Positions 7,491-53,060 of a stretch of DNA of 64,000 nucleotides are shown here, one piece after another. This DNA comes from a virus. Taxonomy: Duplodnaviria > Caudoviricetes. The stretch lies in IMG/VR virus record IMGVR_UViG_3300045609_000068, positions 1 through 64,000 of that record. The stretch is one strand, 5' to 3'. Under the pieces are notes generated by a model. That model did not search any database. It saw only the letters and a list, made by a program, of their open reading frames with translations, and had not been told where the DNA came from. The translations under genes and the position numbers were made by a program. Positions within the stretch are counted from its first letter, which is position 1. Every line of letters begins with the position of its first letter.

Positions 7491-7491
7491 G

Positions 7492-7651: not shown

Positions 7652-7930
7652 TTACTCTGTTTCTTCCAAAAATTGATTAAGGACTTCAATGAAATGTTCC
7701 ATGTCCTCCGTTCCGATGTCCGTTTCGGACTCGAAATCTCCGATGGACTCATCAAGATTATTGAACTTGTCCGTCCCTTCGTCCGTGTCAAGCAACTTGT
7801 CGTACTTGCCAGTCGGATCTTCGTCAAACTCTTCCCTCATGTCGGCGGCAATCTTCTTCGCTGCGTCAGCCACCTTCTGAATTTTCGGAATGAGAGCTTT
7901 CACTCTCGTTTTGTACTTTTTTTCTATCAT
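7652..7930 (-). CDS. Small acidic hypothetical protein
   Basis: ORF from MIEKK, very acidic C-terminus. Confidence 0.65.
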   Translation of the reverse strand: MIEKKYKTRVKALIPKIQKVADAAKKIAADMREEFDEDPTGKYDKLLDTDEGTDKFNNLDESIGDFESETDIGTEDMEHFIEVLNQFLEETE

Positions 7931-8065
7931 AGCCAATTGATTTAAAAATACGGATCGGTACAACATCCGACCACTATTTCGATAAATATATACACTCCCA
8001 ACAATTCGACGGCAATCAATATTATGCCGCATAGTTTATCAAACCAGTCACCCATAACTTTTGAT

Positions 8066-8338
8066 TTAGATTATCAAATGCGAATTTAAATCATTTTTCG
8101 GCACGTTGCTCTGTTCGTTAACAAAGTTTATAGCCTTTTCCCTAGAATCGAACCAGTCGATGTAAATATCGCACCTGTTAGTGTGCCTATAGACACGTTC
8201 CGGCCTTTCCTTTGATTCCTTAACTCCCATCATACAAAGATTCGTCCTGTCATCATAGATGGAGGACATCACGCTGTACCATCTCTTCATTTCAATGTGT
8301 TTTGATTTTAATATTAATCCAATCTTCTCCAGTTTCAT
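8066..8338 (-). CDS. Hypothetical early protein
   Basis: Co-oriented ORF in dense small-gene array; IYIDWF motif. Confidence 0.65.
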   Translation of the reverse strand: MKLEKIGLILKSKHIEMKRWYSVMSSIYDDRTNLCMMGVKESKERPERVYRHTNRCDIYIDWFDSREKAINFVNEQSNVPKNDLNSHLII

Positions 8339-8492
8339 ATTCTCCGTTCCAGTCCAGGAACATCAGCTTGCCACCGCAGATAATGTGCGTGGCAGTATTA
8401 CAGCACTCTGCTTTGCTTCGAAGGCAGTTCAGTCTGATTGTTCTCTTACCTCCGATTATCATGGTATCAAGATAATAATATGTCACTTCCAT
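8292..8492 (-). CDS. Hypothetical early protein
   Basis: 66-aa co-oriented ORF with AT-rich leader. Confidence 0.5.
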   Translation of the reverse strand: MEVTYYYLDTMIIGGKRTIRLNCLRSKAECCNTATHIICGGKLMFLDWNGEYETGEDWINIKIKTH

Positions 8493-27988: not shown

Positions 27989-28579
27989 CTATATAACTAT
28001 CGAATTAAACAGGTTTCCGATTTCATTGTCACGAATCCCTATGTACCGTATCGTAGTCCTTATCGACGTGTGCTTGAACACCTGGTTCAGAAGTATCAGG
28101 GCCTCCTCCTTGCGCCCCATAGACTCGTATACGTATCTTCCGAACGTCTTACGGAACGTATGGCTGGAGAAGTTCCCGATGCTGAGGCTGTATTTTTCCT
28201 TGAACGTCTTCAGGACACGGTTCACGTATTCGCGCGACACCGGGAACCCGTTGGATTTCTTCGTCGAGAATATGTAAGTCCGTCTGTTCGGCCTCCCAAG
28301 CTTCTCGTATGCCGCCTTGACATGCTTTTTCACGCTGTCCCCGATCTCTATGCGCCTTACCTTCTTGGTCTTCTTCTCCTCGACCGTGGCCGAGTCCACT
28401 TCAAGGACGTCGTCCCATACGAGATTCAGCACATCGCTTATCCGAAGGGCCAGCCCGAAAGAAAGCACGCAGTAGAGCGACCATTTGTACTCGCCGTCTA
28501 CCCAGAGGCAGTTGACGAGCCTTCTGTACTCCTCGAAAGAGAGATAATCACTTGTCGTTATCGAACCTTTTGCACTCAT
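27989..28579 (-). CDS. Short tyrosine recombinase (catalytic domain only, 196 aa)
   Basis: LALRISD (R), EKKT (K), SHTFRKTF (HxxR), FKHTS (H), IRYIG (Y); TATATTTG -7 element at 28607-28614. Confidence 0.9.
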   Translation of the reverse strand: MSAKGSITTSDYLSFEEYRRLVNCLWVDGEYKWSLYCVLSFGLALRISDVLNLVWDDVLEVDSATVEEKKTKKVRRIEIGDSVKKHVKAAYEKLGRPNRRTYIFSTKKSNGFPVSREYVNRVLKTFKEKYSLSIGNFSSHTFRKTFGRYVYESMGRKEEALILLNQVFKHTSIRTTIRYIGIRDNEIGNLFNSIVI

Positions 28580-28738
28580 AATGATTTTTGTTATTGATTT
28601 CTTGTGCAAATATAGCCTTTATTGTCTTATGTTGTCATTTTTATCATCATTTATTTAGTTAAATATTGTTATTGCAATGTTTATACCTTATTATAAAAAG
28701 ACTTTTTGACATTATGTTTTGATAAAAGTAAAACAAAA

Positions 28739-36249: not shown

Positions 36250-37599
36250 ATGCCGACAAACACAAAATTAGGTGGTGTATTCACCACCGATCTTGACAAT
36301 AACATTGGTGGAACTGTGAACGTCTCTACTGAAAACGTATGCGGAATCATCTTCGACACCAAGATTGTGGGCGGTTTGGCAACAGCACTGGGCACTGGTA
36401 CCACTGCTGCTACGAAATTCGCCAATGGAGCCGTAGTCGAGCTTAATACCTCCAAGGACGTTGAATCCGCAGGTATAGACGCCACGGTCATGAGCGGTCT
36501 CCCGTTGCACCATCTGAGTAATTTCTTTACTCTTGCAGGGGAAAACCAACGTATATTCGTCTCTTTCATGGACTCGACTACCGACACGAACTTCGAGGCC
36601 GTCGAGAAGATGGTATTGGCTGCAAACGGTATCATATACCAGATTGGTGTATGGACGGGTGAAGCTTTATGCAAGAAGACCGATTCCACTGTCACTATCG
36701 TTGACGGAGGCATCCTTTCCAAACTTCAGGCACAGGCCGAAGTAGTGGGAGGAAAAATCGGGCACGTCAACTACGACGGGAACGCGCCTATAAACATTCT
36801 GGTGAATGCCCCTATCGTTACGGATGCAACGTTCGATGTGGCTTCACTCCCTGACATGTCATCGCTGAACCTGCCAAAGGTTTCCGTGATTCTCGGACAG
36901 CCGGCAACAGATGCGGTACATACGATACAGGCCGCTCTTGGCGGTATGTGTCCAGTGGGCAATGTCGGTGCAGCCCTTGCCTGCCTTGCAGTGGCACCTG
37001 CCGACATAAGCATCGGATGGGTCAAAGAGTTCAATCTGTCCAGCGTTATGACCAATGCGGAACTTGGATTCGGTAACTTGGACATAGATACCACATCGAA
37101 GGCATTCAAGGCTGATGCGGCATTTACGAACATCAAGACTCTCGGATATAGCGCACGCAACACCATCCATAGCAAGGGATATATTTTCCTTACGAATTTG
37201 GACGGAATCGAAAACGGTGTGTTCTTCTCCAGCGACCAGACGCTTAGCACTGGTGACTACAGGACTCTGATGCGTTGCCGTGTTATGCACAAGAGCCGCA
37301 GGTCTGTCAGAAAAGCCCTTCTTCCTTTCGTGAACCAGAGCGTGGAAGTTGATTCGACAACGGGCCAGCTTTCTTCATCCATGATTACGACATACCAGAA
37401 TGCAGTCTTGGCGGCACTTGACGACAATATGGTTGAACCTGGGACATCAGTTCCGCAGATTAGCGGACGTACATGCACTATCTCGTCCACACAGGATATC
37501 CTGACGAATGACGAATTGCAGATATCTTATAGCCTTGTACCAGTAGGATGCACTTCGGTCATCATGGTGACGGAGGGGTTTGTTACTTCTGTATCTTAA
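36250..37599 (+). CDS. Tail sheath protein 1 (DUF2586-like)
   Basis: QIGVWT, PKVSVILGQ, GDY..L...RVMHK.RR.VR.ALLP.VN; directly upstream of tube gene. Confidence 0.85.
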   Translation: MPTNTKLGGVFTTDLDNNIGGTVNVSTENVCGIIFDTKIVGGLATALGTGTTAATKFANGAVVELNTSKDVESAGIDATVMSGLPLHHLSNFFTLAGENQRIFVSFMDSTTDTNFEAVEKMVLAANGIIYQIGVWTGEALCKKTDSTVTIVDGGILSKLQAQAEVVGGKIGHVNYDGNAPINILVNAPIVTDATFDVASLPDMSSLNLPKVSVILGQPATDAVHTIQAALGGMCPVGNVGAALACLAVAPADISIGWVKEFNLSSVMTNAELGFGNLDIDTTSKAFKADAAFTNIKTLGYSARNTIHSKGYIFLTNLDGIENGVFFSSDQTLSTGDYRTLMRCRVMHKSRRSVRKALLPFVNQSVEVDSTTGQLSSSMITTYQNAVLAALDDNMVEPGTSVPQISGRTCTISSTQDILTNDELQISYSLVPVGCTSVIMVTEGFVTSVS

Positions 37600-38922: not shown

Positions 38923-39624
38923 TTACTGGTTTACCTCATCGCAAACTGGCTCCTCATTCTGTACATACCCCTTTTCCGTAAGCAATTTGCGGATAAAGTC
39001 GAGACCTTTCTGGAACACTACCGTCTGGTGGGCCACATTCCAAACCCCGTTCAGTACATACCCTTTTTCAATCACGTTGAAATACTTGCTTTCGATGTAT
39101 ATCTGACGAGGCAGATTTTCTATCGTGAGAACTTTTTCCAATCTAAGGAATTTGAACAGATTGTTTCTCCCTATATCTTTGAAGTTTAAGATTTTTGCGG
39201 CCTTTTCCATGCTGATTGCACGTTTGCTATGGACTACCGCATCGTAGAAGTCAACCTTTTCGGCATCGGACTTTATCTTCTCTTTCTGCTTCTTTATCGT
39301 TTCGGACTGCTTTTCAATCACATGCTGCTTATGGTCGATCACAATTTTCTGCTCCTTGTTCTCGATGGCAAGTCTCTGACGCTCCTTTTCCTCTCCAATC
39401 CAGCACTCGGCACGTTTGATACGGTCGTCTATCTGATAGGAAGGTGTGTCCTTTTCTTTCAGCTTCTTTTCACATTCAATAAAATAGAGCCTTGCTTGTT
39501 TCCCTCGTTCCGATTGAGACATCATAGAAATTTCCTTTGCAGCGTCAATAGTCAACACGTATTCTATTTTATTATTTCCGCCCCTTCCTGTCTCTTTGTT
39601 TTGCTCGCCCAAAAGGGCGAGCAA
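38923..39624 (-). CDS. AntA/AntB antirepressor with KilAC domain, apparently 5'-truncated
   Basis: GRGGNNKIEY.LTIDAAKEISM...G.QAR.YF..CE; TTG start with in-frame TAA two codons upstream. Confidence 0.75.
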   Translation of the reverse strand: MLALLGEQNKETGRGGNNKIEYVLTIDAAKEISMMSQSERGKQARLYFIECEKKLKEKDTPSYQIDDRIKRAECWIGEEKERQRLAIENKEQKIVIDHKQHVIEKQSETIKKQKEKIKSDAEKVDFYDAVVHSKRAISMEKAAKILNFKDIGRNNLFKFLRLEKVLTIENLPRQIYIESKYFNVIEKGYVLNGVWNVAHQTVVFQKGLDFIRKLLTEKGYVQNEEPVCDEVNQ

Positions 39625-39690
39625 AATTTAAAGCGACTATTTTCCCATCAACATAATGTTGGTTAGTAAAAACAATAAAAATATTAATAT

Positions 39691-40446
39691 ATGGACAATC
39701 AATTGGAAGTGAGCGACACTATAACCGTAAAAGAGACTATGACTTCATTGGAAATAGCAGAAGTTACTGGTAGACAACACTCAAACGTATTGCGTGATAT
39801 TCGTAATATATTGGAGCAGATAGAAGATAAAGCCCAATTCACTTTTGAATTGGGGTCGTATTTAGACGCAAACGGTCAGTCAAGACCTATGTATAGTCTT
39901 ACAAAGAAAGACAGCATCCTGCTTGCAAGCGGGTATGATGCTAATCTTCGTGCTAAGATAATCAATCGTTGGGAACAACTGGAAATAGAAAAACGCAATG
40001 GTGGGTTTGAAATACCGAAGACTTATTCGGCGGCCCTTATGTTGGCAGCAAAGCAAGCAGAAGAGATAGAAAATCAGCAGAAGCAATTAGAAATTAAAGA
40101 AACACAGATTGCAGAACTCAAACCGAAAGCGACATATTACGACAGCATCCTTGCAAGTAAAAGTGCTGAATGTGTTACCAAATTCGCGAAAGCGGATTAT
40201 GGAATCAGCGCGCAAGCAATGAATAAACTTCTGCATGAATTTGGAATACAATATAAAGTAGGTGAAACGTGGCTTCCTTACATACAGTTTGCAAAGTGCG
40301 GATATACACAGACAGAAACAATTCCGATTAAGACAAATCATGGAGAAGAAAGCAAATTGCAGACTAAATGGACGCAAAAAGGCCGTCTGTTTATTTATGA
40401 ACAGATGAAGAAGCACGGATATTTGCCTATAATAGAACAAAACTAA
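39691..40446 (+). CDS. Rha-family regulator with KilAC domain
   Basis: MTSLEIAE.TG.QHS.V.RDIR..Y.D.NG..RP.Y.LTK...LLA.GY....R.KII.RW..LE. Confidence 0.88.
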   Translation: MDNQLEVSDTITVKETMTSLEIAEVTGRQHSNVLRDIRNILEQIEDKAQFTFELGSYLDANGQSRPMYSLTKKDSILLASGYDANLRAKIINRWEQLEIEKRNGGFEIPKTYSAALMLAAKQAEEIENQQKQLEIKETQIAELKPKATYYDSILASKSAECVTKFAKADYGISAQAMNKLLHEFGIQYKVGETWLPYIQFAKCGYTQTETIPIKTNHGEESKLQTKWTQKGRLFIYEQMKKHGYLPIIEQN

Positions 40447-40471
40447 TTCAATAATTTAAAACATTAAAGAC

Positions 40472-40723
40472 ATGGAAATTATTATTCAATCTATCAACAC
40501 CCCATCGGGAATGATTAAGATAACGAAAGTCAACGAACGATACAAAATGTATTTTGATGGAAGATATATAAGTCCATTGGAATTGCTATCATACGCATTG
40601 AATATGGATGGAGTTATGGCATGGAAAACGATTCACTATGCCGATATTCTTGCATCATCCAAAGACAATTTGTATTGGAAAATGAGAGATGCTGTATGTA
40701 TGTGTATTACTACTCAATTTTGA
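40472..40723 (+). CDS. Hypothetical protein
   Basis: 83-aa ORF followed by a terminator-like hairpin. Confidence 0.55.
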   Translation: MEIIIQSINTPSGMIKITKVNERYKMYFDGRYISPLELLSYALNMDGVMAWKTIHYADILASSKDNLYWKMRDAVCMCITTQF

Positions 40724-40758
40724 GTTGATGGTGATTTTCAATTGATTACATTATTATG

Positions 40759-40795
40759 GGCTGCCTAAGTTGAAATTAGGCAGCCTATTTTTATC
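40759..40795 (+). terminator. Intrinsic terminator
   Basis: GGCTGCCTAA-GTTGAAA-TTAGGCAGCC followed by TATTTTT. Confidence 0.65.
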
Positions 40796-41098
40796 AATAG
40801 CCATAGTCCAAAAATGGACTATGGTGATTTTCAACGAGTTAGACCCGCCAATTTTGGCGACAATCCTTTTATAGATAGTTAGTTATGAATTATTGACAGT
40901 ATCAACTTTAAGTTATTGTAATGGTATATCGCTAAATAGCGATATGCTTGATTTACAGCTACTTATGGTTAAAGTACAATCAAAATCATTAACCAGCAAA
41001 TCAACCAATAAACTAACCAACAAAATTATGTTGTACATACATTAACGATATTATCGAGCAGCAGAACGAGCAGCAGATTAACCAGCACCGATAGGTTA

Positions 41099-41145
41099 CA
41101 AAGATAACCCCAAAGATAACCCCAAAGATAACCCCAAAGATAACC
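41099..41145. repeat. 12-bp tandem repeat (CAAAGATAACCC x3.9)
   Basis: Read directly; three perfect units plus 11 of 12 bases. Confidence 0.95.
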
Positions 41146-41293
41146 ACGTCTTATTTCCTGATAAAGATTTTGAAGCCACTAATAGTTTTTCCGTTAATGT
41201 TAATATCATTTAAAATACAGTTGGTTTAACATTATAAGCGATTATTTTATTATAAATATTGCAGCAAAGAATACAACAAAGGAAATAATTGCG

Positions 41294-41301
41294 TATATTT
41301 G
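41294..41301 (+). promoter_or_regulatory. Host-type -7 element upstream of accessory genes
   Basis: TATATTTG 88 nt before ATG 41389. Confidence 0.55.
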
Positions 41302-41388
41302 TATCAGAATAATTAAATGTTATGTGCATTTTTCTACTGGGAAATACACAAATTCTAAGTACGTAAACATACAAATTCTTACATACAC

Positions 41389-41745
41389 ATGTGTGAACAA
41401 AATCTTGAAATTATTAAAACTAGAGATATCTTTCTAAAAAATGGGGAGAAATCTGATGTAGTTCTGTTAAAGGATCCAGAAGGAGTTGTGGATATGCACT
41501 TTACCTTTTGTTTGAAATACGTTGGCGATAACGTCCAGACTCAGACGCATTATAAAGTGGCAGACAAGTCTAGTGCTGATTTTATTATTGAAACGAGGCC
41601 CAATTCCTATACTGAGCTAAAGCAGCCATTTCGCATTGGGACATTCGGAAAAGAAGAAAAAGGATTGTTTATAAATTTTAAAGTATATCCATGCGATGAA
41701 AGCAATACGCACCACATGTACTTGTCTTTTTTAACATCAAAATAA
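41389..41745 (+). CDS. AT-rich accessory protein (beta-rich, DUF6864-like)
   Basis: 118 aa; P.RIGT...KGLFINF.V pattern. Confidence 0.6.
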   Translation: MCEQNLEIIKTRDIFLKNGEKSDVVLLKDPEGVVDMHFTFCLKYVGDNVQTQTHYKVADKSSADFIIETRPNSYTELKQPFRIGTFGKEEKGLFINFKVYPCDESNTHHMYLSFLTSK

Positions 41746-41754
41746 ACTAATGTT

Positions 41755-42180
41755 ATGGCTCTAATTACAGAAGGTGAAATCGAAGTAAGCGAAACTATTT
41801 GCAATCTGACGGTAGTACCTATACAGATAACAGAAGATAAACTTAAAAATATACTTACGCAGCATATTGAAAAAATAAAGAAATCGCACGGGTGGATTCC
41901 AGCGTTGGTCACTGTTGTGTCTTTCGTATTGACTATAGATACATCTGATTTCCATGATTCATTCGGCTTTAATGCGGACACCTTAAAAGGATTTTTTGGA
42001 TGCCTTATTTTGCTCTTCTTTTGTTATTTCCTTTACGTTTCATGGAATTGCATCAAAAATAGAGACAGCGTGGATAATATCATAAAAGATATAGAAAACA
42101 AACAAGTAGCTAAAAAAGATAATTCTATAAAGAGCTTTTTTAAAAACTCCGGAAAGCGTAAGATTGATATAAAGGCTTAA
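41755..42180 (+). CDS. AT-rich two-TM membrane protein
   Basis: ITEDKL..IL, then two hydrophobic helices. Confidence 0.7.
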   Translation: MALITEGEIEVSETICNLTVVPIQITEDKLKNILTQHIEKIKKSHGWIPALVTVVSFVLTIDTSDFHDSFGFNADTLKGFFGCLILLFFCYFLYVSWNCIKNRDSVDNIIKDIENKQVAKKDNSIKSFFKNSGKRKIDIKA

Positions 42181-42302
42181 TTGGAAATACGGAATTACCA
42201 TTAACGTGATTGCATTATTCGCCTTTGTCGCGAAATATCTTTTCCATCCAAAGGACTAGCATACAACAAATGGGATCAGTAATGCTGACCCCATAAATTT
42301 TA

Positions 42303-42310
42303 TATATTTG
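42303..42310 (+). promoter_or_regulatory. Host-type -7 element upstream of the 569-aa/84-aa operon
   Basis: TATATTTG 58 nt before ATG 42368. Confidence 0.55.
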
Positions 42311-42367
42311 TCTCAACACCGATTGGTTAACTTTATTTTGTATTAACGGATATTTCTGTTAATATGT

Positions 42368-44077
42368 ATGAATACTTTTGCCGAAAGAATACAACATGGT
42401 CGATTTTTCGATATATTTGCGCTACTAAATCTTGTTATGGATATTAATGGTGAATACATAGAGGAAAACTTTCTTCATCCCGAAAAATACGAACTGGTTT
42501 ATTCCAACGAAGTGGAGGCCAGCATCCTTCGAATCATGAGGAGACGGAAACATGAGTTATTCGGTGATAGTCACGACCCGTCGGAAGAGCAGTGGAGAGA
42601 GTGGGCCGATTATCTTGAAGAGAACTATATAAGGATGATACATACGGATATAGATCCGTTTTGCATACTTATCAGACACGACTTGCTACTGATACGAAAT
42701 TCATACGGAAGCATTATTGATACGATTGAATGGTTTAAATCCATTGGTATGCCTTATAATTTTGATGAAAGAAAATTTAATAGCAATTTTATGAACATAA
42801 TGCGATCTTATAATTCAGATTGGAAGTTATCAATTTCTGATTTGGATTTATTTAAGGTCGATAAAGAAAAAATTGAGGAAGAAAACAAAAAAAGACAGGA
42901 ATTAGAAGAAAAAAATAAGAAGAGACTAGAAGTATTATGTGCTGGACGCGACAAGTATCTTGCAAAAAAGGCAGAAGAAAAACGAATAAAAGAAGAGGAA
43001 GAAAAAAGGTTGTTAAGACTTCGCAAAAAGGAAGAACGAAAAGCCAAGATTATTGAGGAACGGCAGAGAATAGTTACAGAAAACTATTTAATGAGTTTCC
43101 CTTTCCCTTATATAAACGATGAAATAGGCATAAAATTTATTAATGATTACAGAATTGAAAATGGGCATCTCCCGATGTTTTATATTTTGTGCAATTATCT
43201 AAAGATATATGGGCATTTGCAATGTATCGACAATTTGTCAAAAGCATATTGTGTATATATGGAGTATGAGCATGTCAAGTACGGTCCAACTGAAGAAATA
43301 TGGGAAAGTTATGGGATTACAAGAGTTCAGGCCAAGGCAGCAATGAGAAAACATAAGCCGAACAGGATGCTGAAATTAATCCTCGACCACGAAGACTGGA
43401 ACTATTATGAGGTTAGAAATATGAAATTCATATCTAAAGATAATTTCGACATAGAACTTTTCTGCAAGACAGAAAAAGTGAAATTGAATTTTGTTCAGTT
43501 TTTCTTTATGCTGAAACTTGTATATAACAGATATGGGCTGTGTCGTATATACACTGAAGATTTAGAGCCGTTTAGAGAATCGAAAGATAGTGTTTATTGC
43601 TATGATTACATAATATATGAAGACTTTAATATATATAACTTTTCTGATGCAATAAAAGATTTATCAAAGATTGCAAATCTGCATAAACTTATTGAAGGAG
43701 CAAAGACTATCCAAGATGATTATATTATGAATGAAAAATATTGGGATATAGATCTGAAAGAAAAAATGCCGGCGTTCGACATACATAATATATACAGAAT
43801 CCTTTTTACCATATTCAATGATGTAATGGGAGAATGGATAAAAAATAATAAAGACATTTTCATTGAAGATAATTTTCATAGGACACCTAATGTTAAGTCA
43901 ATTTTAAAAGAAGCCTCCGTTCCTCTTACGTGCCTGGAAGTATTTCAAACATACACAAAGGATTACCCGGAAGATAAGACTATAACGTTGGAGAAGGTGA
44001 GAAGTATATTGAAAAGTAATTCCAAGATAATCAGACGTGGTGACATATATAATACGAAACTTTTTTACAAAATATAG
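42368..44077 (+). CDS. AT-rich 569-aa hypothetical protein
   Basis: Long ORF with charged coiled coil; C-terminus possibly wHTH-like. Confidence 0.75.
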   Translation: MNTFAERIQHGRFFDIFALLNLVMDINGEYIEENFLHPEKYELVYSNEVEASILRIMRRRKHELFGDSHDPSEEQWREWADYLEENYIRMIHTDIDPFCILIRHDLLLIRNSYGSIIDTIEWFKSIGMPYNFDERKFNSNFMNIMRSYNSDWKLSISDLDLFKVDKEKIEEENKKRQELEEKNKKRLEVLCAGRDKYLAKKAEEKRIKEEEEKRLLRLRKKEERKAKIIEERQRIVTENYLMSFPFPYINDEIGIKFINDYRIENGHLPMFYILCNYLKIYGHLQCIDNLSKAYCVYMEYEHVKYGPTEEIWESYGITRVQAKAAMRKHKPNRMLKLILDHEDWNYYEVRNMKFISKDNFDIELFCKTEKVKLNFVQFFFMLKLVYNRYGLCRIYTEDLEPFRESKDSVYCYDYIIYEDFNIYNFSDAIKDLSKIANLHKLIEGAKTIQDDYIMNEKYWDIDLKEKMPAFDIHNIYRILFTIFNDVMGEWIKNNKDIFIEDNFHRTPNVKSILKEASVPLTCLEVFQTYTKDYPEDKTITLEKVRSILKSNSKIIRRGDIYNTKLFYKI

Positions 44078-44080
44078 CTT

Positions 44081-44335
44081 ATGAAAAAGAAATATTTAAA
44101 AATAGTGTTGATAGTAATTTGTTTTATCTTATTTGGGTGGTATGTATATTCTTCAAGCCAAAGAGTTGAACAAGGGTACAAAGGAGCAGATGAAACGACA
44201 AAGAGAGTTGAAAAGTATTCCAACCAAGCTTTGAAAAACGGGTATAATGAAACGTCTGGCGGCATAGGTGCTAAACCTGTTGTTGTCAAAAAGTCAGATT
44301 TGGAAAAAGATAATATAGGACAGGATGATGAATAG
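44081..44335 (+). CDS. 84-aa membrane-anchored protein homologous to an internal TMP segment
   Basis: KKK + TM helix, then 21 of 34 residues identical to TMP aa 1269-1302. Confidence 0.85.
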   Translation: MKKKYLKIVLIVICFILFGWYVYSSSQRVEQGYKGADETTKRVEKYSNQALKNGYNETSGGIGAKPVVVKKSDLEKDNIGQDDE

Positions 44336-44354
44336 TTTCACCCCGCCCCATATT

Positions 44355-47300
44355 CTACACTTTGCCCATAAGAGAAAGCTGTGAGTTCACTTGTGATGTA
44401 AGCATAGCAATAGCTTGTGCAAGACGATCCTCGACAGACTGAATCATTGCTCTTTCGTCAGCGTTACCAGCAATCGTAGTTTTGTCGAAATTGGCAAGAT
44501 TTTGTATTGTTATATTGATTTGCGTCGGAGTTGCGGCTTGCCTTCCGTAAGTGTTTTCGTAACCCTTGTTAGGATTGCTGCTCCCTCCGGTTCTGCCGCC
44601 TTTTCCTCCTGTTGCTGCTGGAAGTGAATTAGTAGCGTTACTAGAACCCGAATTATTCCATCCAGTTCCAAACCCATTGTCAACAGTCCCTTTTTTGTTT
44701 TTGTTGTTCTTTTTAGCACCGGGTATGGATTTTACTATATTATTTTCTTTAGTTCCAGGTCTGGTAATATATGCCAGTTTACCTTTATTCTGTTTCTTAT
44801 CGTCAATTGCTTTTTGCAGTGGATTATATGGCTGATATCCCATATTCCAAGCATATCCGAACTTTTGTTTTCCTGCCTTGTATGGTATCTTTACTTTATT
44901 ACTTTTTGGTTGGAGAACATTATTTGTACTAGGATTCTCTCCTGAATTCCAATTTACATTAGTCCATCTCGAAGCCTCAATCTCTTGTTGTTTAAGATAT
45001 TCTATCAAAGCCTTTATTCTACCAGCAACGCCTTGTAACCCAGGTATGTTATCTAATGAATTGGCAATATTTTCGAGAAGTGATACATGCGCGTTAACCG
45101 TATTAGGAACTTGTATTCCAAGCGCATTTAACATGTCGTAGAAACCTTCCCATTGTGGTTGCCCGTTCTTGAATTGCAAGAATACATTTTGCATCCTTCC
45201 ATACATATCAGGCAATTTGATTGGTATTGTCCCTAGATAACTACTAGCCGCATTCATAAATTTATCAGAATACAGTCCAGTAAGATTAACTAAATTCTGA
45301 TAAGTTTTCCAAACTTGTGTAAGTTTATTATATGCGCCAGAATACCATTGAGTAAATTCAGATAAATCAGGTGAATTAAATATCTGTTTATACCCATAAT
45401 TGTTTACATCTTTCCCAATATTAAGAGCAGGATTAAATTGCTCAATCATATTGTTAATAGCCTCTTTATTCTTTGCAGATAATTTTCCTTTTGAATTTTC
45501 TACAATAGAAGTTATCTTTGATTCTGCATTTTTTGTTTCATTTGATTCTGCTCCATATCTATATACTGATGCACGAGCTATTAAATTACGAACCCCGTTA
45601 TAGTATTTATTATCGACCCCTAATGTCTTATATGTTTTAATTTTGGTTCCATCTTCTGCTGTGTATTCTTGCAATAAATTTCCACCAGCATCAGTTTCTA
45701 ATTGATTCTTGATAGCTGAAAATGAATAGTTTTTGCTATCTTTACCATAAGCATATTTGTATGGAACAATATATTTATCGTACCAGTTTTGTAAAATAGG
45801 CAGGAAATGCGTATCTTTTCCTAACTTACTTGTAAGTTGTCTGAAATCAGATATTTGTGACAACTTTCTTTTAGATGCTTTTGGTTTATTTGATACGGAT
45901 GGTATATCACCGACATAAGTATTATTATTTAGTTGCGGATTTGATTTCAACCAATTTGTAAGATCAATTGGTTTTGTCCCAATTCCGCCAGCCATTTGAT
46001 TATATCCATTTTTTAAAGCGGTTTTAGAATATGCTTTAACCCTATCGCTTGTCTTGTCAGCATCTTCGTATCTCTTGCTAATATGTTTAACATAAGCAAC
46101 AAGTAAAGCTATACCTGCAAGTGCTGCAAGATACGGTAATGCTGCTGTAAACATTCCAGCAATTTTTGCTAAGAAAATAGGTATTCTTAAAATGGAATTT
46201 TTTATCATATTAATTAATGGCATCAGCGTAAACCCTGTGAGCATGGCGTTTCCTGCCTTGTATGCAAGTCCCATCCTTGCACCAGTGCCTAATTTGTTCA
46301 TTGCGGCGAAGCGTTCGATAAGTGCGGAATTACGGAATTGTTCTGTACGTCTCATATCCCTCAATACGTTCATGTAGGCATTGCGTTCTGCAACCAATCT
46401 GCGTTCGTTAGCATAGTTCTGTTCAGCCCTTGCGCCATAGTGTGCGGAAAGTTCCGACTCACCAGCTCTTTCCCAATATTCAGAACCTTTGGTGTACATA
46501 AATCCGTTTGTATGGGCGTTACGTATATAATTATAATACGAGCCTCCGTTTCTATACATCGCATTTTGGCGTTCCAACAGTGTATTGGCACTTGCTCGTT
46601 CAGCGGCAATTGCCTCTGGAGCAGCGACCGCCCCTGCAACGGCGGCACTCGAACCTCTTGGATGGCGAAGCGTTGCCCACAGCAAAGAACCGTTAAGAAG
46701 AAGGCTTGTCAGCCCTCCTCCCAATCTTGACATTCCAGAAGTTGCAGCCCCTCTGCGGACTACAGATTTAACGGCATTTGCCTCCATTACTCTCGGAACA
46801 GCCCCTCCAGCCATCATCGCACCTGCAATACGGGCAGAACTGTAACGTGAAGCGATTCCGCCTCCAGCAGCCAAGCCACCAACGGCATACGCGCCACCAG
46901 CTACACCTGCCGCACCGGGCAGCAATCCTCTGAACGAAGACAGCATTCCGAGCATCTGCACGAACGGGGTAATGAGATAACCAATCTGTGTCATTGCCAT
47001 CTGCATGACAACAATCGCTTTGATGAATCCGGGGAATGCGTTATATATCTTTAGCCAAATGCTAACAGATGCTTTGAAAATACCCAATATGGCTTTGAGC
47101 AAGTCGAATACGTTCTTCAAGTTCTGCACAGCTTCTGGCTTGGCGAGATATTTAAGCGCATCTCCCATAGCTCCCTTAATGGTTTTCTGCAATCCACTGA
47201 ATACGGTTAATGTATCATCGGTCAACGAGCTCTCGACCTGTTTCCACAGACCCTCAACGGTGTTCTGTTTCTTTAGGGATATTTCATTTGCTATTCCGTT

Positions 47301-49874
47301 TGCCGCAAGGTTAGCATTTGCCACGCTGCGGGTCTTCTCGACATCAATGGTAGCGGCGGCAGCACCTTGTGTTGCGGTTACACGGAACAGTCCGGACATC
47401 CATTTCGCTATATTCTTATCGTTGACTTTAGGATTATGCTTGATTTTCTCTATAAGGTCAAGCATATCGACAGGACTTCCGTCCTTGTTCGTCAGGCTGA
47501 TGCCAAGCGCGTCCCAGTATTTCTGCGATTTCTTTGTTGGTTGAAGGACATTCTGATACATCATACGCAAGGTAGTACCAGCACGGCTTCCTTGAATACC
47601 AGAGTTACCCATGACACCTATCATCGCCAACGCTTCGGCAAGGGAATTTACATTTCCTTTCTGATGGTTGGCCAGATAAGCGTAACCGCCTCCATAGGAC
47701 AATGCCTCCGCCAGCTGAATCATGTTGGTGTTGGTAGAGGTATATGTGTTGGTAAGCATATCCGCCAGCTTCGGCATATCCTTCGGCTTGATTTTGAACT
47801 CCGTCATGATGTTCGTCATCTTATCGGCCATAGTTGCCAAATCCTGATCGTCAATGACTGCCACATCTGCGATAGGCTTGATTGCCGCTGCGGAAGTGGG
47901 GACATCCAAACCTGCCATCGCCATGAAACGTGCCGCACCCGCTGCATCGGGGGCGGTGAACTTAGTCTTCCTTGCCACGTTTCTTACGTTCTTAGCCAGA
48001 TTTCCGAAATCTCCGTTGAAGTTGTTTCCTCTATAGTTATTCCTGTAAATAGCTTTAGCCGTTTCCATCAAATTCTGATATTGTACGGATTGGCCGAAAG
48101 TATCGGAAATGACGCTCATGGCACCGCCTACGGCAAACATGGTTCCCATGCCTTTAGCCATTGAAAGAGCGGCTGGGGTGGATGCTCCGAACGAGGTGTT
48201 GCCAGTAAGTGGGTACGCCCAACGGCGAGCCCTTGCGTAAAGCCCTTCATTATTGCCTCCAGCCAAAGCCATTCCCTCTTTCCCTGCTGGGATTCTCATC
48301 CTTGCATATCCCGTCCTTGCGTAAGGCAACATGCCATACGTGCTTCCAAGGCGTGCTGCGGTTTCAGCCGAACGTGAACCATAAGGAAGAGGCTGTTCGC
48401 TTGTATATCCGGGCCCAGAAGTCGTGCGCTGTCTGGAACCTCCTCCTGTAGCTAATGTGACGGGTATAGGTCTTTCCAAAGTCATCAGCGCTTCCCTGAG
48501 CTTGGCAATCTGCTCCATGGCACCAGTGATATTGAGATTTACTTTGACATCGTTAAGTCCCTCACCGAGCTTTTTGGAGATCGCGTTTCTGTTAGCCGCA
48601 CCCTCTTTGGCGTTTGTACCCCATACAGGTTCTATCCTCGCCTTGATGGTAAGGGCTTTCATCTTTTCGGCAGCCTTTGCTAAGGAGGCCTCGATGCCTG
48701 CCGCATCCACAATGGCCTTTACAGGGACTTCCACCGCAGCCTTTGGAGCTTTTATCCTTTCGGCGGCAAGTGTACCTTGCAGCTTGACGGTTCCGATAGC
48801 CTTTACACTGTCCGCGTTGATTTCGGCAGTCGCCTTGATGTTAAGTTCGGACTTAACTGGAAGAACACGGGTAACTTCGGCAACGGTCTCCACAACGTTA
48901 GGGCCAGTGGGTTTTGGCAGTACACGTGTAACTTCGGCAACAACAGGTATCGTTATTTCAGCAGCACCCTTCGCGGCCTTTGCGCCTTTTCCTCCCTTGC
49001 CAGCTACACCTTTTGACACTGCTTGCATCTGCTTGGTGATGTCCTCCCAGTTGGACATTACATCTATCTTGTAAGAGAAAGTCTTTTTCTTTACAAGGGA
49101 TAGTTTTTCGAGCGCGGATGCCAGTGAACGGATGGCGGTGGCGTTAGCCTGCGTCGTGGAAGGCGCTGGCGTTATGCCGACATTGACCATCCCTTCCGTC
49201 TTGGATGACGAAGCGCCTCCTGAAATGAGACCGGGGTATTTCTTGACTAAGTCATTTTGAAGTTTTCCGAGTCTTTCCAGTTCTTTGTTATAATTGGTAA
49301 TCTGTCTGTTGGCCTCGGCAGTCAGGTTGGCGTAATGCTTTTTCTGGTTTTCCCTCCACTTGTTGAGCTTGTCCCCGGAATACCCCATAGGTGTAGCGGT
49401 AGACACTCTGCTGGACTGCGCATTTAACTTATCAAGCTCTTTTTGCGTATCCGTAATTTTTTTACGGTAATCCTTTATGCCTTCTTTGTAAGCGTTCAGC
49501 TGCGATTTCCTCAAACCCCTTCCGTCGAGTTTCCCGACGCTTTCCATGAACTTCGCAGCACCAGCCTGACCTCCGAAAACGGATTCAAGGGTGTCGCGCA
49601 TCCGTATCGCGGACGCCGTTACCATCCTTTCCATGGTACCAAGGTCCGTTCGTATTCCTTCGGTATTAATCTTAGGGTTGATCTTTGTCGCTGCATTGGA
49701 AAGCGACTGTATGGTCTTTGTTATGGACTTTACATCGCTGTTAAGCAAAGAGAACCCCTTGCCCTTTCCGGACAGTTGATGTATTCTACCAAGCAAAGCG
49801 TCCAACGCCTGCGATACTGGCAGTGTGTTGGCGGTTATATTATAGTTAACGATATAATTTCTTTCAGGAGCCAT
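44355..49874 (-). CDS. Tape measure protein (TP901-type core), 1839 aa
   Basis: TKFTA.DAA.A..FMAMAG, LAMIG.MG.SGI.GS.AGT.LR core; TM segments; INITI.NL C-terminus. Confidence 0.92.
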   Translation of the reverse strand: MAPERNYIVNYNITANTLPVSQALDALLGRIHQLSGKGKGFSLLNSDVKSITKTIQSLSNAATKINPKINTEGIRTDLGTMERMVTASAIRMRDTLESVFGGQAGAAKFMESVGKLDGRGLRKSQLNAYKEGIKDYRKKITDTQKELDKLNAQSSRVSTATPMGYSGDKLNKWRENQKKHYANLTAEANRQITNYNKELERLGKLQNDLVKKYPGLISGGASSSKTEGMVNVGITPAPSTTQANATAIRSLASALEKLSLVKKKTFSYKIDVMSNWEDITKQMQAVSKGVAGKGGKGAKAAKGAAEITIPVVAEVTRVLPKPTGPNVVETVAEVTRVLPVKSELNIKATAEINADSVKAIGTVKLQGTLAAERIKAPKAAVEVPVKAIVDAAGIEASLAKAAEKMKALTIKARIEPVWGTNAKEGAANRNAISKKLGEGLNDVKVNLNITGAMEQIAKLREALMTLERPIPVTLATGGGSRQRTTSGPGYTSEQPLPYGSRSAETAARLGSTYGMLPYARTGYARMRIPAGKEGMALAGGNNEGLYARARRWAYPLTGNTSFGASTPAALSMAKGMGTMFAVGGAMSVISDTFGQSVQYQNLMETAKAIYRNNYRGNNFNGDFGNLAKNVRNVARKTKFTAPDAAGAARFMAMAGLDVPTSAAAIKPIADVAVIDDQDLATMADKMTNIMTEFKIKPKDMPKLADMLTNTYTSTNTNMIQLAEALSYGGGYAYLANHQKGNVNSLAEALAMIGVMGNSGIQGSRAGTTLRMMYQNVLQPTKKSQKYWDALGISLTNKDGSPVDMLDLIEKIKHNPKVNDKNIAKWMSGLFRVTATQGAAAATIDVEKTRSVANANLAANGIANEISLKKQNTVEGLWKQVESSLTDDTLTVFSGLQKTIKGAMGDALKYLAKPEAVQNLKNVFDLLKAILGIFKASVSIWLKIYNAFPGFIKAIVVMQMAMTQIGYLITPFVQMLGMLSSFRGLLPGAAGVAGGAYAVGGLAAGGGIASRYSSARIAGAMMAGGAVPRVMEANAVKSVVRRGAATSGMSRLGGGLTSLLLNGSLLWATLRHPRGSSAAVAGAVAAPEAIAAERASANTLLERQNAMYRNGGSYYNYIRNAHTNGFMYTKGSEYWERAGESELSAHYGARAEQNYANERRLVAERNAYMNVLRDMRRTEQFRNSALIERFAAMNKLGTGARMGLAYKAGNAMLTGFTLMPLINMIKNSILRIPIFLAKIAGMFTAALPYLAALAGIALLVAYVKHISKRYEDADKTSDRVKAYSKTALKNGYNQMAGGIGTKPIDLTNWLKSNPQLNNNTYVGDIPSVSNKPKASKRKLSQISDFRQLTSKLGKDTHFLPILQNWYDKYIVPYKYAYGKDSKNYSFSAIKNQLETDAGGNLLQEYTAEDGTKIKTYKTLGVDNKYYNGVRNLIARASVYRYGAESNETKNAESKITSIVENSKGKLSAKNKEAINNMIEQFNPALNIGKDVNNYGYKQIFNSPDLSEFTQWYSGAYNKLTQVWKTYQNLVNLTGLYSDKFMNAASSYLGTIPIKLPDMYGRMQNVFLQFKNGQPQWEGFYDMLNALGIQVPNTVNAHVSLLENIANSLDNIPGLQGVAGRIKALIEYLKQQEIEASRWTNVNWNSGENPSTNNVLQPKSNKVKIPYKAGKQKFGYAWNMGYQPYNPLQKAIDDKKQNKGKLAYITRPGTKENNIVKSIPGAKKNNKNKKGTVDNGFGTGWNNSGSSNATNSLPAATGGKGGRTGGSSNPNKGYENTYGRQAATPTQINITIQNLANFDKTTIAGNADERAMIQSVEDRLAQAIAMLTSQVNSQLSLMGKV

Positions 49875-49894
49875 GATTTATATTTTTAGTGAAA

Positions 49895-51211
49895 TTAAAC
49901 TTCGAATGTTTCAAGTGCCGTGATTGCCGTTGAGGAATCGGCGGGTACGACATCGGTTTTTATGTTGATGCTGTCCGTCTCGATGATATTCCCGTTTGCT
50001 GATACGGAAACGTTTCTTCCGTCGATCTGTTTATATCCCAACGGATTGACCATGGCGGTGTCTATCAGCGACAAAACGTCGTTGACTATCTGCGCCTTGC
50101 CTGTTTCGGTAATGTCCCCGGTTGTCGTTTCAAGATAGAACGTGGCATTGATATAAGGTATAAGCGCCCTTCTTACAACCCTGCGTATCTTGTGCATGAC
50201 TCTGTTGCGGGACAACGAGCAATAGTCCCCGTCGGAAAGCGTCGTGTCGTTGCTGAAATAAACGGCACCTGGCTTGGGCACATAGGTGACTGGGACGACA
50301 TATCCTTTGTTGGCTATCTGATTCAGTCGGTATTGGCTCATTCCGCTTATCGGGGAGTAATCGTCGCTTGACGATTTCAATGTGCCGAAACCGAGTTCCG
50401 CGCTTTTGAAGTCGTCGTTCTTGTTGAGGTCGTATTTTGAAACGTATGCGATGCTTTCCTCCGCTGGTGCAAGGCACAAGCAGGCCAAAACCTTTCCGAG
50501 CATCCCAACTGGAGAATAGTTTATGTCGCTATTTTGCATGGTATGTACAGCATCTGTTCCGTTCTGCCCAAGGATGACGCTCAACTTCGGAAAATCAAGG
50601 TTTATGGCGTTCGGAATGTTTCTGTAGTCCATGATATACGAATCAGCCCCGTCCGCTTTTGTATGCGCGGTATTTGCATTCAGCACGATATTCATGGGAA
50701 GCAGCGCCGATGCCGTCTTCCCGATGATTCCAGAAAGTATTTCCGCACGTGCCTCTATCTCGCCTAGCAGCGCAGTGAATCCGATTGTTCCGCCCGTTGA
50801 CTTCCATAAGTCCTGTTCCGTCCATATACCTAGCTGGAATAACTTCCCTGATGCTTTCTGCTGGAAGTCCTCTATACAGGTAAATGACGGGGAGCCGTTG
50901 TCAACGCAGTTTGCGAACATCACGTATATGGCCGCATCCTTTCCGATATAGCTATAAAATTCCTTGATATGATAATAGGGTATGCCGCCCATTATTCCTC
51001 CCTCTTTGATTCCGAGATACACGGCCTCGTCGATGTTGTTTATCTGCTGTACCTGTCCGTCTCCGAAATTCAGAGCCGCAGTGTCATATCCATAAAAGGC
51101 ATTCGACCTTAACCCGTAGTCGAAAACCATTCCGCATACGCTTTCGTCGTATGAAACATCCAATACGTTGCTTTGCAGTTTGCCTACGTTCGCCTTTCCT
51201 ATATTGCCCAT
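49895..51211 (-). CDS. Tail sheath protein 2 (DUF2586-like paralogue)
   Basis: QLGIWT, PKLSVILGQ, GDY..L.RNRVMHKIRR.VRRALIPYIN align to sheath 1; start reset to MGNIG. Confidence 0.85.
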   Translation of the reverse strand: MGNIGKANVGKLQSNVLDVSYDESVCGMVFDYGLRSNAFYGYDTAALNFGDGQVQQINNIDEAVYLGIKEGGIMGGIPYYHIKEFYSYIGKDAAIYVMFANCVDNGSPSFTCIEDFQQKASGKLFQLGIWTEQDLWKSTGGTIGFTALLGEIEARAEILSGIIGKTASALLPMNIVLNANTAHTKADGADSYIMDYRNIPNAINLDFPKLSVILGQNGTDAVHTMQNSDINYSPVGMLGKVLACLCLAPAEESIAYVSKYDLNKNDDFKSAELGFGTLKSSSDDYSPISGMSQYRLNQIANKGYVVPVTYVPKPGAVYFSNDTTLSDGDYCSLSRNRVMHKIRRVVRRALIPYINATFYLETTTGDITETGKAQIVNDVLSLIDTAMVNPLGYKQIDGRNVSVSANGNIIETDSINIKTDVVPADSSTAITALETFEV

Positions 51212-51336
51212 ATTAATAGTATTTCTTATATATAGTGTTTTTCGGAGATTTGAAGTCATTACGTTTTTGATGCGGTTTGTAAGTTAATGTAAGTTAATTA
51301 ATACACCTTTGGTTCATAAGGTAACTATATCAAGGT

Positions 51337-51435
51337 AGAGCATAGGTTGGAGTAGCTACCAATCGACAAGGGGTAATCCGAAGGCCCCTTGCTCTTTCTT
51401 TATTCTTCGGGGTAACTTAAACATTCGGATTATGG
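51337..51435 (+). ncRNA. Structured leader upstream of KilA-N gene
   Basis: Outer AGAGC/GCTCT stem, two hairpins; loop TAATCCGAA is complementary to TTCGGATTA at 51424-51432. Confidence 0.5.
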
Positions 51436-51581
51436 ACACTTCTTGATTTCACCTTATTTATAGTCGGCATCAGCTTAATGATACCCAAAAGCCCTTAATG
51501 GCTGGGTTAGACCCGTCGAGATGATTTGAGGTCAGTTTCGATGTTTCCGAAAATCGGGCATTGTCAATAAACGTAATTATT

Positions 51582-52250
51582 ATGAAAATGAAAACGAATG
51601 TAACCATGACACGAAATATGGGAAATTTTTCTGTGTATCAGAGAACATCTGATGGTATGTTTAACGCGACATCTTTGCTTAAACAGTGGAACGCTTTCAA
51701 CAACTCAAAAAAGGAGTTGAAAGAATATTTCAAACTTAATAGTACAAGCGAGTTCGCAAATACCATTGCAGAAAAGGAAAATCTTGATGGGTGGAAATCC
51801 ACCTATCATACTTCTCACGCAAATAAAGGCGAAAATGCAGGTACGTGGATGCACCCTATGTTATTTATAGATTTCTGTATGTGGATAAATCCATCTTTTA
51901 AATATGATGTATTGAAATTTGTTTACGACCAGATGATTAAATACAGGAACGATGCCGGAGACGCATATTGTGAACTGGGAGCTTCCATTCAAAAAATCGT
52001 TTCAAGGGATTTTATGAAAACGGCAATGAAGAAAACTGGAGAAGCCATTAACTGGGTCATATTCAATTGCCATGAGCAAGGAATGCGTAACAAGGTTGGT
52101 GAGGAAGGCAAACAGAGAGATTTGTATGAGTTCGAACATAAGATTGCGGAACTCATCAATGACGGATTCATCAAGAGTTATGATGAGCTCATCAACTATC
52201 TTAGGAAACAATACACAAAACGGAATTATCCGAAAGTGTTCCTTAAATAG
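51582..52250 (+). CDS. KilA-N domain protein
   Basis: V.QRT.DG.FNAT.LLKQW, GTWMHP.LFIDF.MW.NP.FKY.V. Confidence 0.9.
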   Translation: MKMKTNVTMTRNMGNFSVYQRTSDGMFNATSLLKQWNAFNNSKKELKEYFKLNSTSEFANTIAEKENLDGWKSTYHTSHANKGENAGTWMHPMLFIDFCMWINPSFKYDVLKFVYDQMIKYRNDAGDAYCELGASIQKIVSRDFMKTAMKKTGEAINWVIFNCHEQGMRNKVGEEGKQRDLYEFEHKIAELINDGFIKSYDELINYLRKQYTKRNYPKVFLK

Positions 52251-52419: not shown

Positions 52420-52947
52420 ATGAAAAAGATTGTCTATACTTCGATTGACGATTTTACATTGAATAAACAGATTGTAAAATCATACAAGGAACTAGGAAGT
52501 GATTTTGTAGCATGGATTGAGGAAAACACAATCAAGCTGATAGAAAACAGAACACGAGCCGAAACACTTGCTTATGAGAAAATATCATCAACGAACTTGC
52601 AAATTGATTCGCAACCATTCTTTATGATTAACGGACACAGCTATTTCCTTGACATTTATGTTCCGAAATTAAAATTGGCAATAGAAATTGATGGTGGTTA
52701 TCATTCATATCGTAGACAGATAGACATAGTAAGGGATAAGGATTTCGATTCTATTGGAATAAGAACTATCCGTGTATCGAATAAGAACGTTTTGGATGGG
52801 AATCTATTCGCTATTATTAGAGAAAAACTGACAAATAGCAAACATGTCAAAAAGAAAAAATCGAAATCCCCAGTTGGAAAAAGCCGTAAGCGAGAATTGG
52901 CTGAAAAGAAAAGATACCGAAATAGGTTCAAATTGAAGTATGCTTAA
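52420..52947 (+). CDS. DUF559 / Vsr-like endonuclease
   Basis: Q..F....YFLD.Y.PK.KLAIEIDGGYH....D..RD......GI..IR.SN. Confidence 0.85.
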   Translation: MKKIVYTSIDDFTLNKQIVKSYKELGSDFVAWIEENTIKLIENRTRAETLAYEKISSTNLQIDSQPFFMINGHSYFLDIYVPKLKLAIEIDGGYHSYRRQIDIVRDKDFDSIGIRTIRVSNKNVLDGNLFAIIREKLTNSKHVKKKKSKSPVGKSRKRELAEKKRYRNRFKLKYA

Positions 52948-52994: not shown

Positions 52995-53060
52995 ACATTA
53001 TATGGCTAAAAACACAGTTTCCATGGTGGCGGGGAAAATACTATATTTAAGAAAAGGATT

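Follow-up and report, generated by a model that had tools for sequence, protein, structure and literature searches.

Why would a phage encode, facing the gene of its tape measure protein (TMP), a small membrane protein that resembles an internal piece of that same TMP? The question is raised by the first 64,000 nucleotides (the window) of IMG/VR virus record IMGVR_UViG_3300045609_000068, a tailed phage (Caudoviricetes) in which an open reading frame (ORF) of 84 amino acids (aa) at 44081-44335 runs towards the 3' end of the TMP gene. The phage belongs to a family of myophages of ~80-115 kb, its 82.5-kb record being ~75% complete, and among isolates Bacteroides phage BS-TP1 comes closest (36% identity in the central part of TMP). 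Judging from its sequence, this mini-protein has as its predicted periplasmic helix a copy, old and by now diverged, of the stretch behind the last transmembrane (TM) helix in the phage's own TMP. We propose, with a confidence just short of even, that the mini-protein would act in superinfection exclusion (Sie) at the injection stage, as a self-derived and allele-matched mimic of TMP. What is new here is a candidate exclusion protein that copies the very TMP segment on which it would act, in at least two TMP clades.

The mini-protein and the tape measure segment that it resembles

The two genes and their parts are the following.

44081-44335, plus strand: mini-protein gene (product P0001, 84 aa), with a Lys-rich N-terminus, one TM helix, an adjoining helix, a Gly-rich turn and an acidic 18-aa tail
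44090-44161, plus strand: predicted TM helix of the mini-protein, about aa 4-27 (hydropathy scan and helix of the AlphaFold2 (AF2) model)
44177-44278, plus strand: TMP-like segment of the mini-protein, aa 33-66, identical to TMP 1269-1302 at 21 of 34 residues, with core residues retained in the relative P0003 (see below)
44336-44354: gap of 19 nt between the convergent stop codons, which confirms the arrangement given in an earlier note on this DNA; no hairpin terminator is seen in it
44355-49874, minus strand: TMP gene, 1839 aa, a compositional chimera (PF10145, E 1.7e-30, and TMP PHROGs)
45969-46070, minus strand: TMP segment copied by the mini-protein, aa 1269-1302, which adjoins the last TM helix and varies between clades in relatives
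46077-46193, minus strand: last hydrophobic (TM) stretch of TMP, aa 1228-1266 (hydropathy), a TM motif conserved across the TMP family

BLASTP aligns residues 27-67 of the mini-protein with TMP 1263-1303 without gaps (21/41 identical, E 2e-12), and inside this alignment lies the gapless match of aa 33-66 to TMP 1269-1302 that the earlier note had picked out. Its further remark, that the segment comes after a TM helix in both proteins, agrees with the hydropathy profiles, in which a hydrophobic stretch precedes the segment at TMP 1228-1266 and at mini-protein 1-27. When the whole 82.5-kb record was searched in six frames, the TMP segment was the only match besides the mini-protein gene itself (E 1.2e-11).

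The likeness is one of peptides. Nine of the 21 identical residues share their codon and 12 use a different one, while the two stretches of DNA agree at 68 of 102 nt (67%), with a longest identical run of 7 nt. By the Nei-Gojobori method the proportion of synonymous differences (pS) is 0.756, that is, saturated, and the proportion of nonsynonymous differences (pN) is 0.218. Saturated synonymous sites combined with a low pN indicate that conservation acts on the peptide and not on the DNA. The claim that this is no fresh duplication, drawn from 12 synonymous-codon differences, thus stands by both the codon table and the pS value.

The TMP ORF matches 16 PHROG families, of which 11 are annotated as tape measure protein (phrog_1533, phrog_9696 and phrog_28 are among the matches, and E values reach down to 2.8e-36). 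The TMP of relative L018 has a comparable layout, with its last TM helix at residues 1176-1210 followed by 43 residues and then by a Gly-Gly-aromatic-Lys-Pro turn. In an alignment of 15 TMPs that covers the last TM helix and the next 55 residues, the helix is well conserved and the adjoining segment differs from clade to clade. A conserved TM helix with a clade-variable neighbour is the pattern that would be expected of a specificity determinant. As the segment is native to the TMP family, it is the mini-protein that copies an element of TMP, and not the reverse.

Translation and hydropathy give the mini-protein an MKKK start and a 57-aa tail after the hydrophobic helix, and an AF2 model built on three sequences consists of one long helix (residues 3-57) and a disordered tail, with a predicted local distance difference test (pLDDT) score of 62. 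With four Lys on the N-terminal side of the TM helix, the positive-inside rule suggests an N-in, C-out topology, and by the same rule the copied helix would lie on the periplasmic face. A prediction of the complex between the mini-protein and TMP 1215-1340 scored 0.00, but it was folded without alignments and counts neither way.

A real gene under purifying selection

An exhaustive phmmer search of 1.84 billion representatives found a single true relative of P0001, the protein P0003 (80 aa, 56% identity). A further candidate, P0005, was rejected, since it matches the TM helix only and the motif is missing. P0003 is encoded on a 1.7-kb contig, L013, where its gene is convergent with the 3' end of a TMP gene, as in the window. 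Over codons 1-63 the comparison of P0001 with P0003 gives a saturated pS of 0.70 and a pN of 0.36, hence a pN/pS of ~0.5 and, after Jukes-Cantor correction, a dN/dS (nonsynonymous to synonymous rate) of ~0.25. Despite this saturated divergence, the L013 copy keeps its start codon, TM helix, motif core, frame and stop, a pattern that marks the 84-aa ORF as truly coding and as subject to purifying selection. The DNA alignment of the window with L013 also reveals a mosaic boundary at ~44265, inside the mini-protein gene: from its last 21 codons through the final 282 codons of TMP, the two sequences are close (dS ~0.19-0.28). P0001 itself has no family in Pfam, PHROGs (at E 0.01), PADLOC or NCBIfam, and its ESM Atlas score is below 0.9.

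A second pair of mini-protein and tape measure protein

Relatives were gathered from IMG/VR, where a query alignment of the central part of TMP picked out 33 loci (39-49% identical to the window TMP); every ORF of at least 35 aa outside TMP was then compared with the TMP of the same locus. A second mini-protein came to light in three of the 33 loci (L031, L039 and L040, from three metagenomes, with TMPs of 2529 and 2288 aa). It counts 75 aa from the likely Met, is encoded on the opposite strand, and its TM helix stands between a Lys-rich N-terminus and a tail of 40 residues. Its match to its own TMP covers residues 1711-1770, that is, the last TM helix and the adjoining segment (E 1.2e-11). 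Within the segment 20 of 40 residues are identical, a level reached by none of 300 shuffles, with a pS of 0.83 and a pN of 0.30. The comparison of dN with dS, proposed as a check in the earlier note, therefore points to purifying selection on the peptide in both pairs. For the window and the L039 mini-proteins alike, the strong hydrophobic helix after a Lys-rich N-terminus predicts a location in the envelope or inner membrane.

The matching is specific to the clade in both directions. The window mini-protein matches the window TMP (E 3e-11) and finds nothing better than E 0.6 in the other TMPs; the L039 mini-protein matches the TMPs of its own subclade at E ~1e-10, those of neighbouring subclades at ~1e-7 and ~0.01, and the window TMP not at all. 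The two mini-proteins are not alike (E 0.35). The earlier suggestion that in related phages such a protein should match its own TMP best was thus borne out by a second pair. These comparisons indicate a recurrent class, made up of at least two mini-proteins unrelated in sequence, each of which fits the TMPs of one clade, its own, and has its gene in a low-GC accessory cassette that abuts the 3' end of TMP and runs on the other strand. By sequence, the two are built alike: a basic patch at the N-terminus leads into a TM helix, and this in turn into a copy of the stretch next to the last TM helix in the TMP of the same phage.

The cassette of the L039 type is an 868-bp insert between the TMP stop codon and the hub gene, which also encodes a 114-aa orphan and has a GC content of 0.33 vs 0.445 for TMP. 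Seven loci with the same TMP segment (L032-L036, L038 and L053) have no insert, and only 78-81 nt separate TMP from the hub; in most other relatives TMP likewise leads directly to the hub. The L039-type cassette shows two traits of a moron, presence or absence in otherwise collinear relatives and a deviant base composition, and the counterpart for the window gene is that it lies in an island of GC 0.31-0.38. At the same TMP-hub junction, low-GC inserts in other relatives hold opposite-strand lipoprotein genes (L018 13872-14480 and L056 13681-14283, both on the minus strand; also L019). Their products, of 202 aa in L018 and L019 and 200 aa in L056, have a signal peptide and a lipobox Cys and belong to no family. 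Their presence makes the junction a hot spot for envelope-targeted accessory genes, and those of L018 and L056 are candidate exclusion lipoproteins at the site that the mini-protein occupies in L039.

One might argue that such a pair arose as a by-product when recombination duplicated part of TMP in inverted orientation, and that the product persisted as a small membrane protein of a generic kind, with a role, if any, unrelated to TMP. The region is heavily rearranged, with a chimeric TMP, an inverted block from the second sheath gene (sheath2) to TMP and a mosaic breakpoint within the mini-protein gene itself, and in both lineages the two copies are inverted, at ~1.6 kb on each side of the TMP stop codon. 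Yet pN/pS relative to TMP is 0.29-0.37 at saturated sites in two independent pairs, and a decaying remnant would lose both its frame and its similarity, whereas the L013 copy has kept frame, start and TM helix. Moreover, two unrelated mini-proteins copy the same segment of TMP, and none of six whole genomes of relatives holds a TMP fragment: tiles of TMP run against the records of these six (77-114 kb) found no TMP-derived piece, and the same tiling of the window phage genome recovered exactly the mini-protein gene. Debris would hardly account for this recurrent pattern, and we consider a by-product unlikely.

The inverted copies could also be thought to serve as a switch at the DNA level, recombining so that a ~1.7-kb inversion places the C-terminal domain of TMP on the anchor of the mini-protein. 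The geometry is in frame, the inverted copies flank the C-terminal domain of TMP in both lineages, and a 206-aa tyrosine recombinase is encoded at 27989-28609. Set against this, the DNA identity is low (67%, with no run above 7 nt), a repeat finder did not report the pair, ten assemblies hold one orientation, and no joint at these places occurs in the run contigs; such a switch appears extremely improbable.

Lysis, or service to the phage's own tape measure protein?

The design of the mini-proteins recalls that of Rz i-spanins, which likewise have an N-terminal TM anchor and a charged periplasmic helix, and a lysis protein (an Rz-like i-spanin, or of the holin/antiholin type) would fit their type II topology; the likeness to TMP would then reflect a shared design of TM and periplasmic helix. 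The L039 mini-protein does match several Rz-like spanin PHROGs weakly (best E 3e-4), but its E value against its own TMP is lower by seven orders of magnitude, and P0001 has neither a Pfam nor a PHROG match, including none to an Rz-like spanin profile at E 0.01. At 75-84 aa the mini-proteins are about half the length of Rz, and they have no o-spanin partner, embedded or adjacent, nor a lysis cassette around them: their neighbours are the 569-aa and the 114-aa orphans, which look cytoplasmic and have no lipobox, and the endolysin domains PF01510 and PF00959 are absent from the ~75%-complete record. Unlike a spanin, the cassette is accessory and not universal, for it is missing from close relatives, which must still lyse. 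A function in lysis is in our view quite unlikely.

The same distribution bears on the idea that the mini-protein helps its own TMP, as a membrane landing pad or chaperone for TMP in the producing cell, for instance to keep it from entering the membrane too early, or as an immunity protein against the pore-forming activity of that cell's TMP. It is attractive in that the segment concerned is the same membrane-adjoining one as in TMP, and work on T4 compares the exclusion protein Imm with colicin immunity proteins (bioRxiv 10.64898/2026.03.06.709160). The gene is, however, missing in close relatives whose TMP has the same segment, and hence dispensable for assembly; it lies in a low-GC accessory cassette and is read against the direction of the tail genes, and a segment placed in the periplasm is ill-suited to a cytoplasmic chaperone. 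We thus give a helper function a low probability.

Proposed exclusion by mimicry and its precedents

Several described exclusion proteins act through TMP. Imm of T4 binds TMP at the helical-bundle domain and upsets the way in which this domain works together with the TM segment of TMP (bioRxiv 10.64898/2026.03.06.709160). Imm, of ~9 kDa, is a small inner-membrane protein of a contractile-tailed phage, as is predicted for our mini-protein, and it blocks genome translocation by direct action on TMP (same source); unlike the mini-protein, Imm has several helices and no reported similarity to the T4 TMP, gp29, while the mini-protein is a predicted single-pass copy of a TMP segment. Exclusion by gp15 of HK97 is escaped by hybrid phages with the tail tube and TMP genes of HK022 (as summarised in PMC10883804). 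There gp15 is predicted to reside in the inner membrane, and its gene is a moron among the tail genes, which resembles the present case; gp15 differs in coming from an E. coli siphovirus and in having no reported TMP homology, whereas the mini-protein and TMP are paralogues. Ltp, from the Streptococcus thermophilus phage TP-J34, targets TMP and is escaped through changes in TMP (PMC3952083; Bebeacua 2013, as cited in PMC10883804). It too is anchored in the envelope, and relatives of the window phage have lipoprotein genes at the site of the L039 mini-protein, but Ltp, itself a lipoprotein, has a repeat fold of helix-turn-helix-like type, is not a fragment of TMP and belongs to a Gram-positive host.

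The searches of Pfam, PHROGs, PADLOC and NCBIfam and by phmmer found no sequence or profile homology of P0001 to described Sie families, Imm included. Imm, gp15 and Ltp are not homologous to each other either, so sequence homology does not define this functional class. The earlier note knew of no described exclusion protein that is itself a TMP fragment; a full-text search of the literature agrees, without being proof of absence.

Outside phages, Fv1, Fv4 and enJS56A1 are dominant-negative restriction factors of animals that derive from viruses. The parallel lies in an expressed copy of a viral structural protein that, depending on the virus type, stops related viruses at entry or assembly; the difference is that these are retroviral genes domesticated by the host, while the copy described here remains beside its template in the phage genome.

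The pattern of mini-protein and TMP, together with the precedents of Imm, gp15 and Ltp, makes exclusion by mimicry the best-supported mechanism. The mini-protein would be anchored in the inner membrane and would display the membrane-adjoining helix of TMP in the periplasm. An incoming TMP that inserts its hydrophobic hairpin would place its own copy of the segment at the same site. The mini-protein might then co-assemble with incoming TMP of the same type as a dominant-negative subunit, or it might occupy the partner of the segment, be it another domain of TMP or a host membrane protein. In either case the DNA channel would fail to form, and the outcome would be superinfection exclusion specific to the TMP allele. 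That self-derived copies of TMP segments, as dominant-negative subunits or as competitors, in this way exclude kin phages by TMP allele is a general proposal that we advance tentatively, at somewhat below even confidence.

Mimicry could serve another end, in that the TMP epitope of the mini-protein might saturate or misdirect a host immune protein that recognises TMP, for example a SNIPE-type nuclease or a TMP-sensing receptor. Membrane defences that bind TMP do exist (SNIPE, PMC13190303), and a TMP-specific sensor would require mimicry matched to the allele. A defence acting at the injection stage, however, acts before incoming genes are expressed, so that only kin arriving later could benefit; no such defence is known for these hosts, the PADLOC search was empty, and the context gives no sign of counter-defence. 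Such a decoy strikes us as very unlikely.

Several observations weigh against exclusion by mimicry. Mini-proteins occur in two lineages (three with L013) among about a dozen phage types surveyed, and the genes that accompany them differ, a 569-aa orphan in the window and a 114-aa orphan in the L039 lineage, so that the context gives no functional hint. The spanin matches of the L039 mini-protein, weak as they are (best E 3.2e-4), point elsewhere. P0001 and P0003 have 21 and 20 of 34 residues identical to the window TMP segment, each being closer to TMP than to the other mini-protein; this fits two proteins held close to TMP and simple divergence from one duplication equally well. Neither the TMP segment of the L013 lineage nor other relatives of the mini-protein and of the TMP C-terminus were found in the IMG/VR, metagenome or GTDB scans. 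Finally, neither near the recombinase gene nor at the record's left end did an integration junction or flanking host DNA turn up. One member of the family, G002, is classed as a provirus, which means that temperate life exists in this family. Exclusion genes also function in lytic phages such as T4 and T5, and lysogeny is therefore not required for the proposed role.

Occurrence of the phage and searches for relatives

Ten contigs that carry P0001 (L003-L012) were compared with positions 39000-52000 of the window. Nine are identical (100%) over up to 13 kb and the tenth, L009, is 99.97% identical with two gap openings. They come from JGI and Logan assemblies of wastewater and bioreactor-sludge metagenomes, and the runs in which this stretch occurs are samples of these kinds from 17 studies dated 2021-2025. 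The window phage is strikingly clonal and widespread. Among the members of this clonal cluster variation is absent within the lineage, and the single TMP variant is one substitution far from the segment.

Scans of IMG/VR for relatives with P0001 and with the C-terminal third of TMP returned nothing, and one with alignment A5 returned L018 alone, a record known already. Searches of word-indexed proteins, tblastn on 50,697 phage genomes and megablast on the phage collection were empty, and the C-terminal third of TMP has no tblastn match among these 50,697 genomes. In four RNA or RNA-like wastewater runs, of which three are probably DNA, contigs cover the genome patchily, structural and accessory genes alike. 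In two wastewater runs a cluster of single-nucleotide polymorphisms at 46281-46311, where the composition of TMP changes, marks a variant strain, which seems to have the high-GC parts in common with the window phage, while the AT-rich island is poorly covered.

Base composition and genomic context

Three further features frame the mini-protein gene.

39650-46300: low-GC island (GC 0.31-0.38; GC at third codon positions (GC3) 0.2-0.36), with antirepressor genes, the mini-protein gene cluster and the 3' third of TMP
40756-40788, plus strand: strong terminator-like hairpin of 13 pairs and a T run, between the antirepressor genes and the mini-protein gene cluster
41389-44077, plus strand: three genes 5' of the mini-protein gene, for proteins of 118 aa (weak DUF6864) and 141 aa (hydrophobic, membrane) and for the 569-aa orphan

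The GC3 of TMP is ~0.5-0.58 over codons 1-1000 and 0.19-0.35 over codons 1201-1839, while in the L018 TMP it is flat (0.4-0.69) with no 3' drop; from its composition the window TMP is a chimera. Its 3' third, which begins shortly ahead of the codons for the last TM helix and the copied segment, shares the low-GC block with the mini-protein gene, and the island at 39.7-44.3 kb has a GC3 of 0.31-0.36, level with that third.

Four ORFs on the same strand span 41389-44335, the stop codon of the 569-aa orphan lying 3 nt before the start of the mini-protein gene. The statement of the earlier note that the mini-protein gene ends an operon with a host promoter could not be verified, a sigma-70 promoter scan being at chance level (28 found vs 31.5 expected). 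TAnnTTTG motifs at 41294 and 42303, and upstream of the L039 mini-protein, are not above chance in AT-rich DNA. A 12-nt sequence, CAAAGATAACCC, is repeated in tandem in about four copies at 41099-41145, in non-coding DNA upstream of the 118-aa gene, and could be an operator or an iteron-like array.

The 569-aa protein, encoded at 42368-44077, contains a Lys/Glu-rich coiled-coil linker and has no family in Pfam, PHROGs, PADLOC, NCBIfam or the ESM Atlas. A degenerate TMP was considered and rejected, as BLASTP against TMP gave nothing better than E 2. On L013 (1-147) the gene upstream of the mini-protein ends at the equivalent of residue ~150 of the 569-aa protein (56% identity over aa 107-149), and the 569-aa form may be a fusion or an extension. 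The same contig holds, at 422-1745 on the minus strand, the 3' region of TMP in two frames (136 aa and 357 aa) that meet near aa ~1520 of the window TMP, which suggests either a frameshift or an assembly error.

BS-TP1 and L018 have their tail genes in one order on one strand: portal ... sheath, tube, chaperone, (sheath-like), TMP, hub, hub. Relative to these phages, the window has the block from sheath2 to TMP inverted and separated from the hub gene at 53061, and AT-rich accessory DNA lies on both sides of it, with antirepressor, KilA-N and DUF559-like genes. A degenerate inverted repeat, TTTCACCCCGCCCCAT at 44336-44351 vs the reverse complement TTTTCCCCGCCACCAT at ~53028-53043, has its copies at the two ends of this inverted 8.7-kb block (TMP, sheath2, KilA-N and DUF559-like genes). 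The two tail sheath paralogues (DUF2586; 36250-37599 on the plus and 49895-51259 on the minus strand) are 34% identical, and L018 has a 424-aa gene (7108-8382) directly upstream of TMP. In the AT-rich island on the other side of the block, 52420-52947 (plus strand) encodes a 175-aa protein with a DUF559/Vsr-like endonuclease fold (PADLOC mREase_II, E 3e-7, and weak homing-endonuclease PHROGs), which might be linked to the rearrangements. The tyrosine recombinase at 27989-28609, on the minus strand (PF00589, E 1.3e-17), adjoins the portal gene and is short for a typical integrase. The window phage has no tRNA genes.

What a copied tape measure segment would mean

How TMP opens the inner membrane for DNA is poorly understood, and Imm, gp15 and Ltp offer little handle at the level of residues. 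A short TMP segment that has been copied twice, in different sequence versions, is a candidate for a functional, specificity-determining element, and if exclusion by mimicry is true, the segment copied by the mini-proteins would mark TMP residues that are important for channel formation. The exclusion class would then be new, a fragment of a viral structural protein turned on relatives, and the signature by which to search for it would be a small TM ORF near a TMP gene that matches that TMP. If the idea is confirmed, phages would be turning pieces of their own structural proteins into weapons against kin of a given type, which may help to explain strain-level resistance to phages in wastewater and sludge communities (the nearest isolate infects Bacteroides). 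The clade-to-clade variation of the TMP segment would in that case be the trace of an arms race between tape measure proteins and their own mimics.

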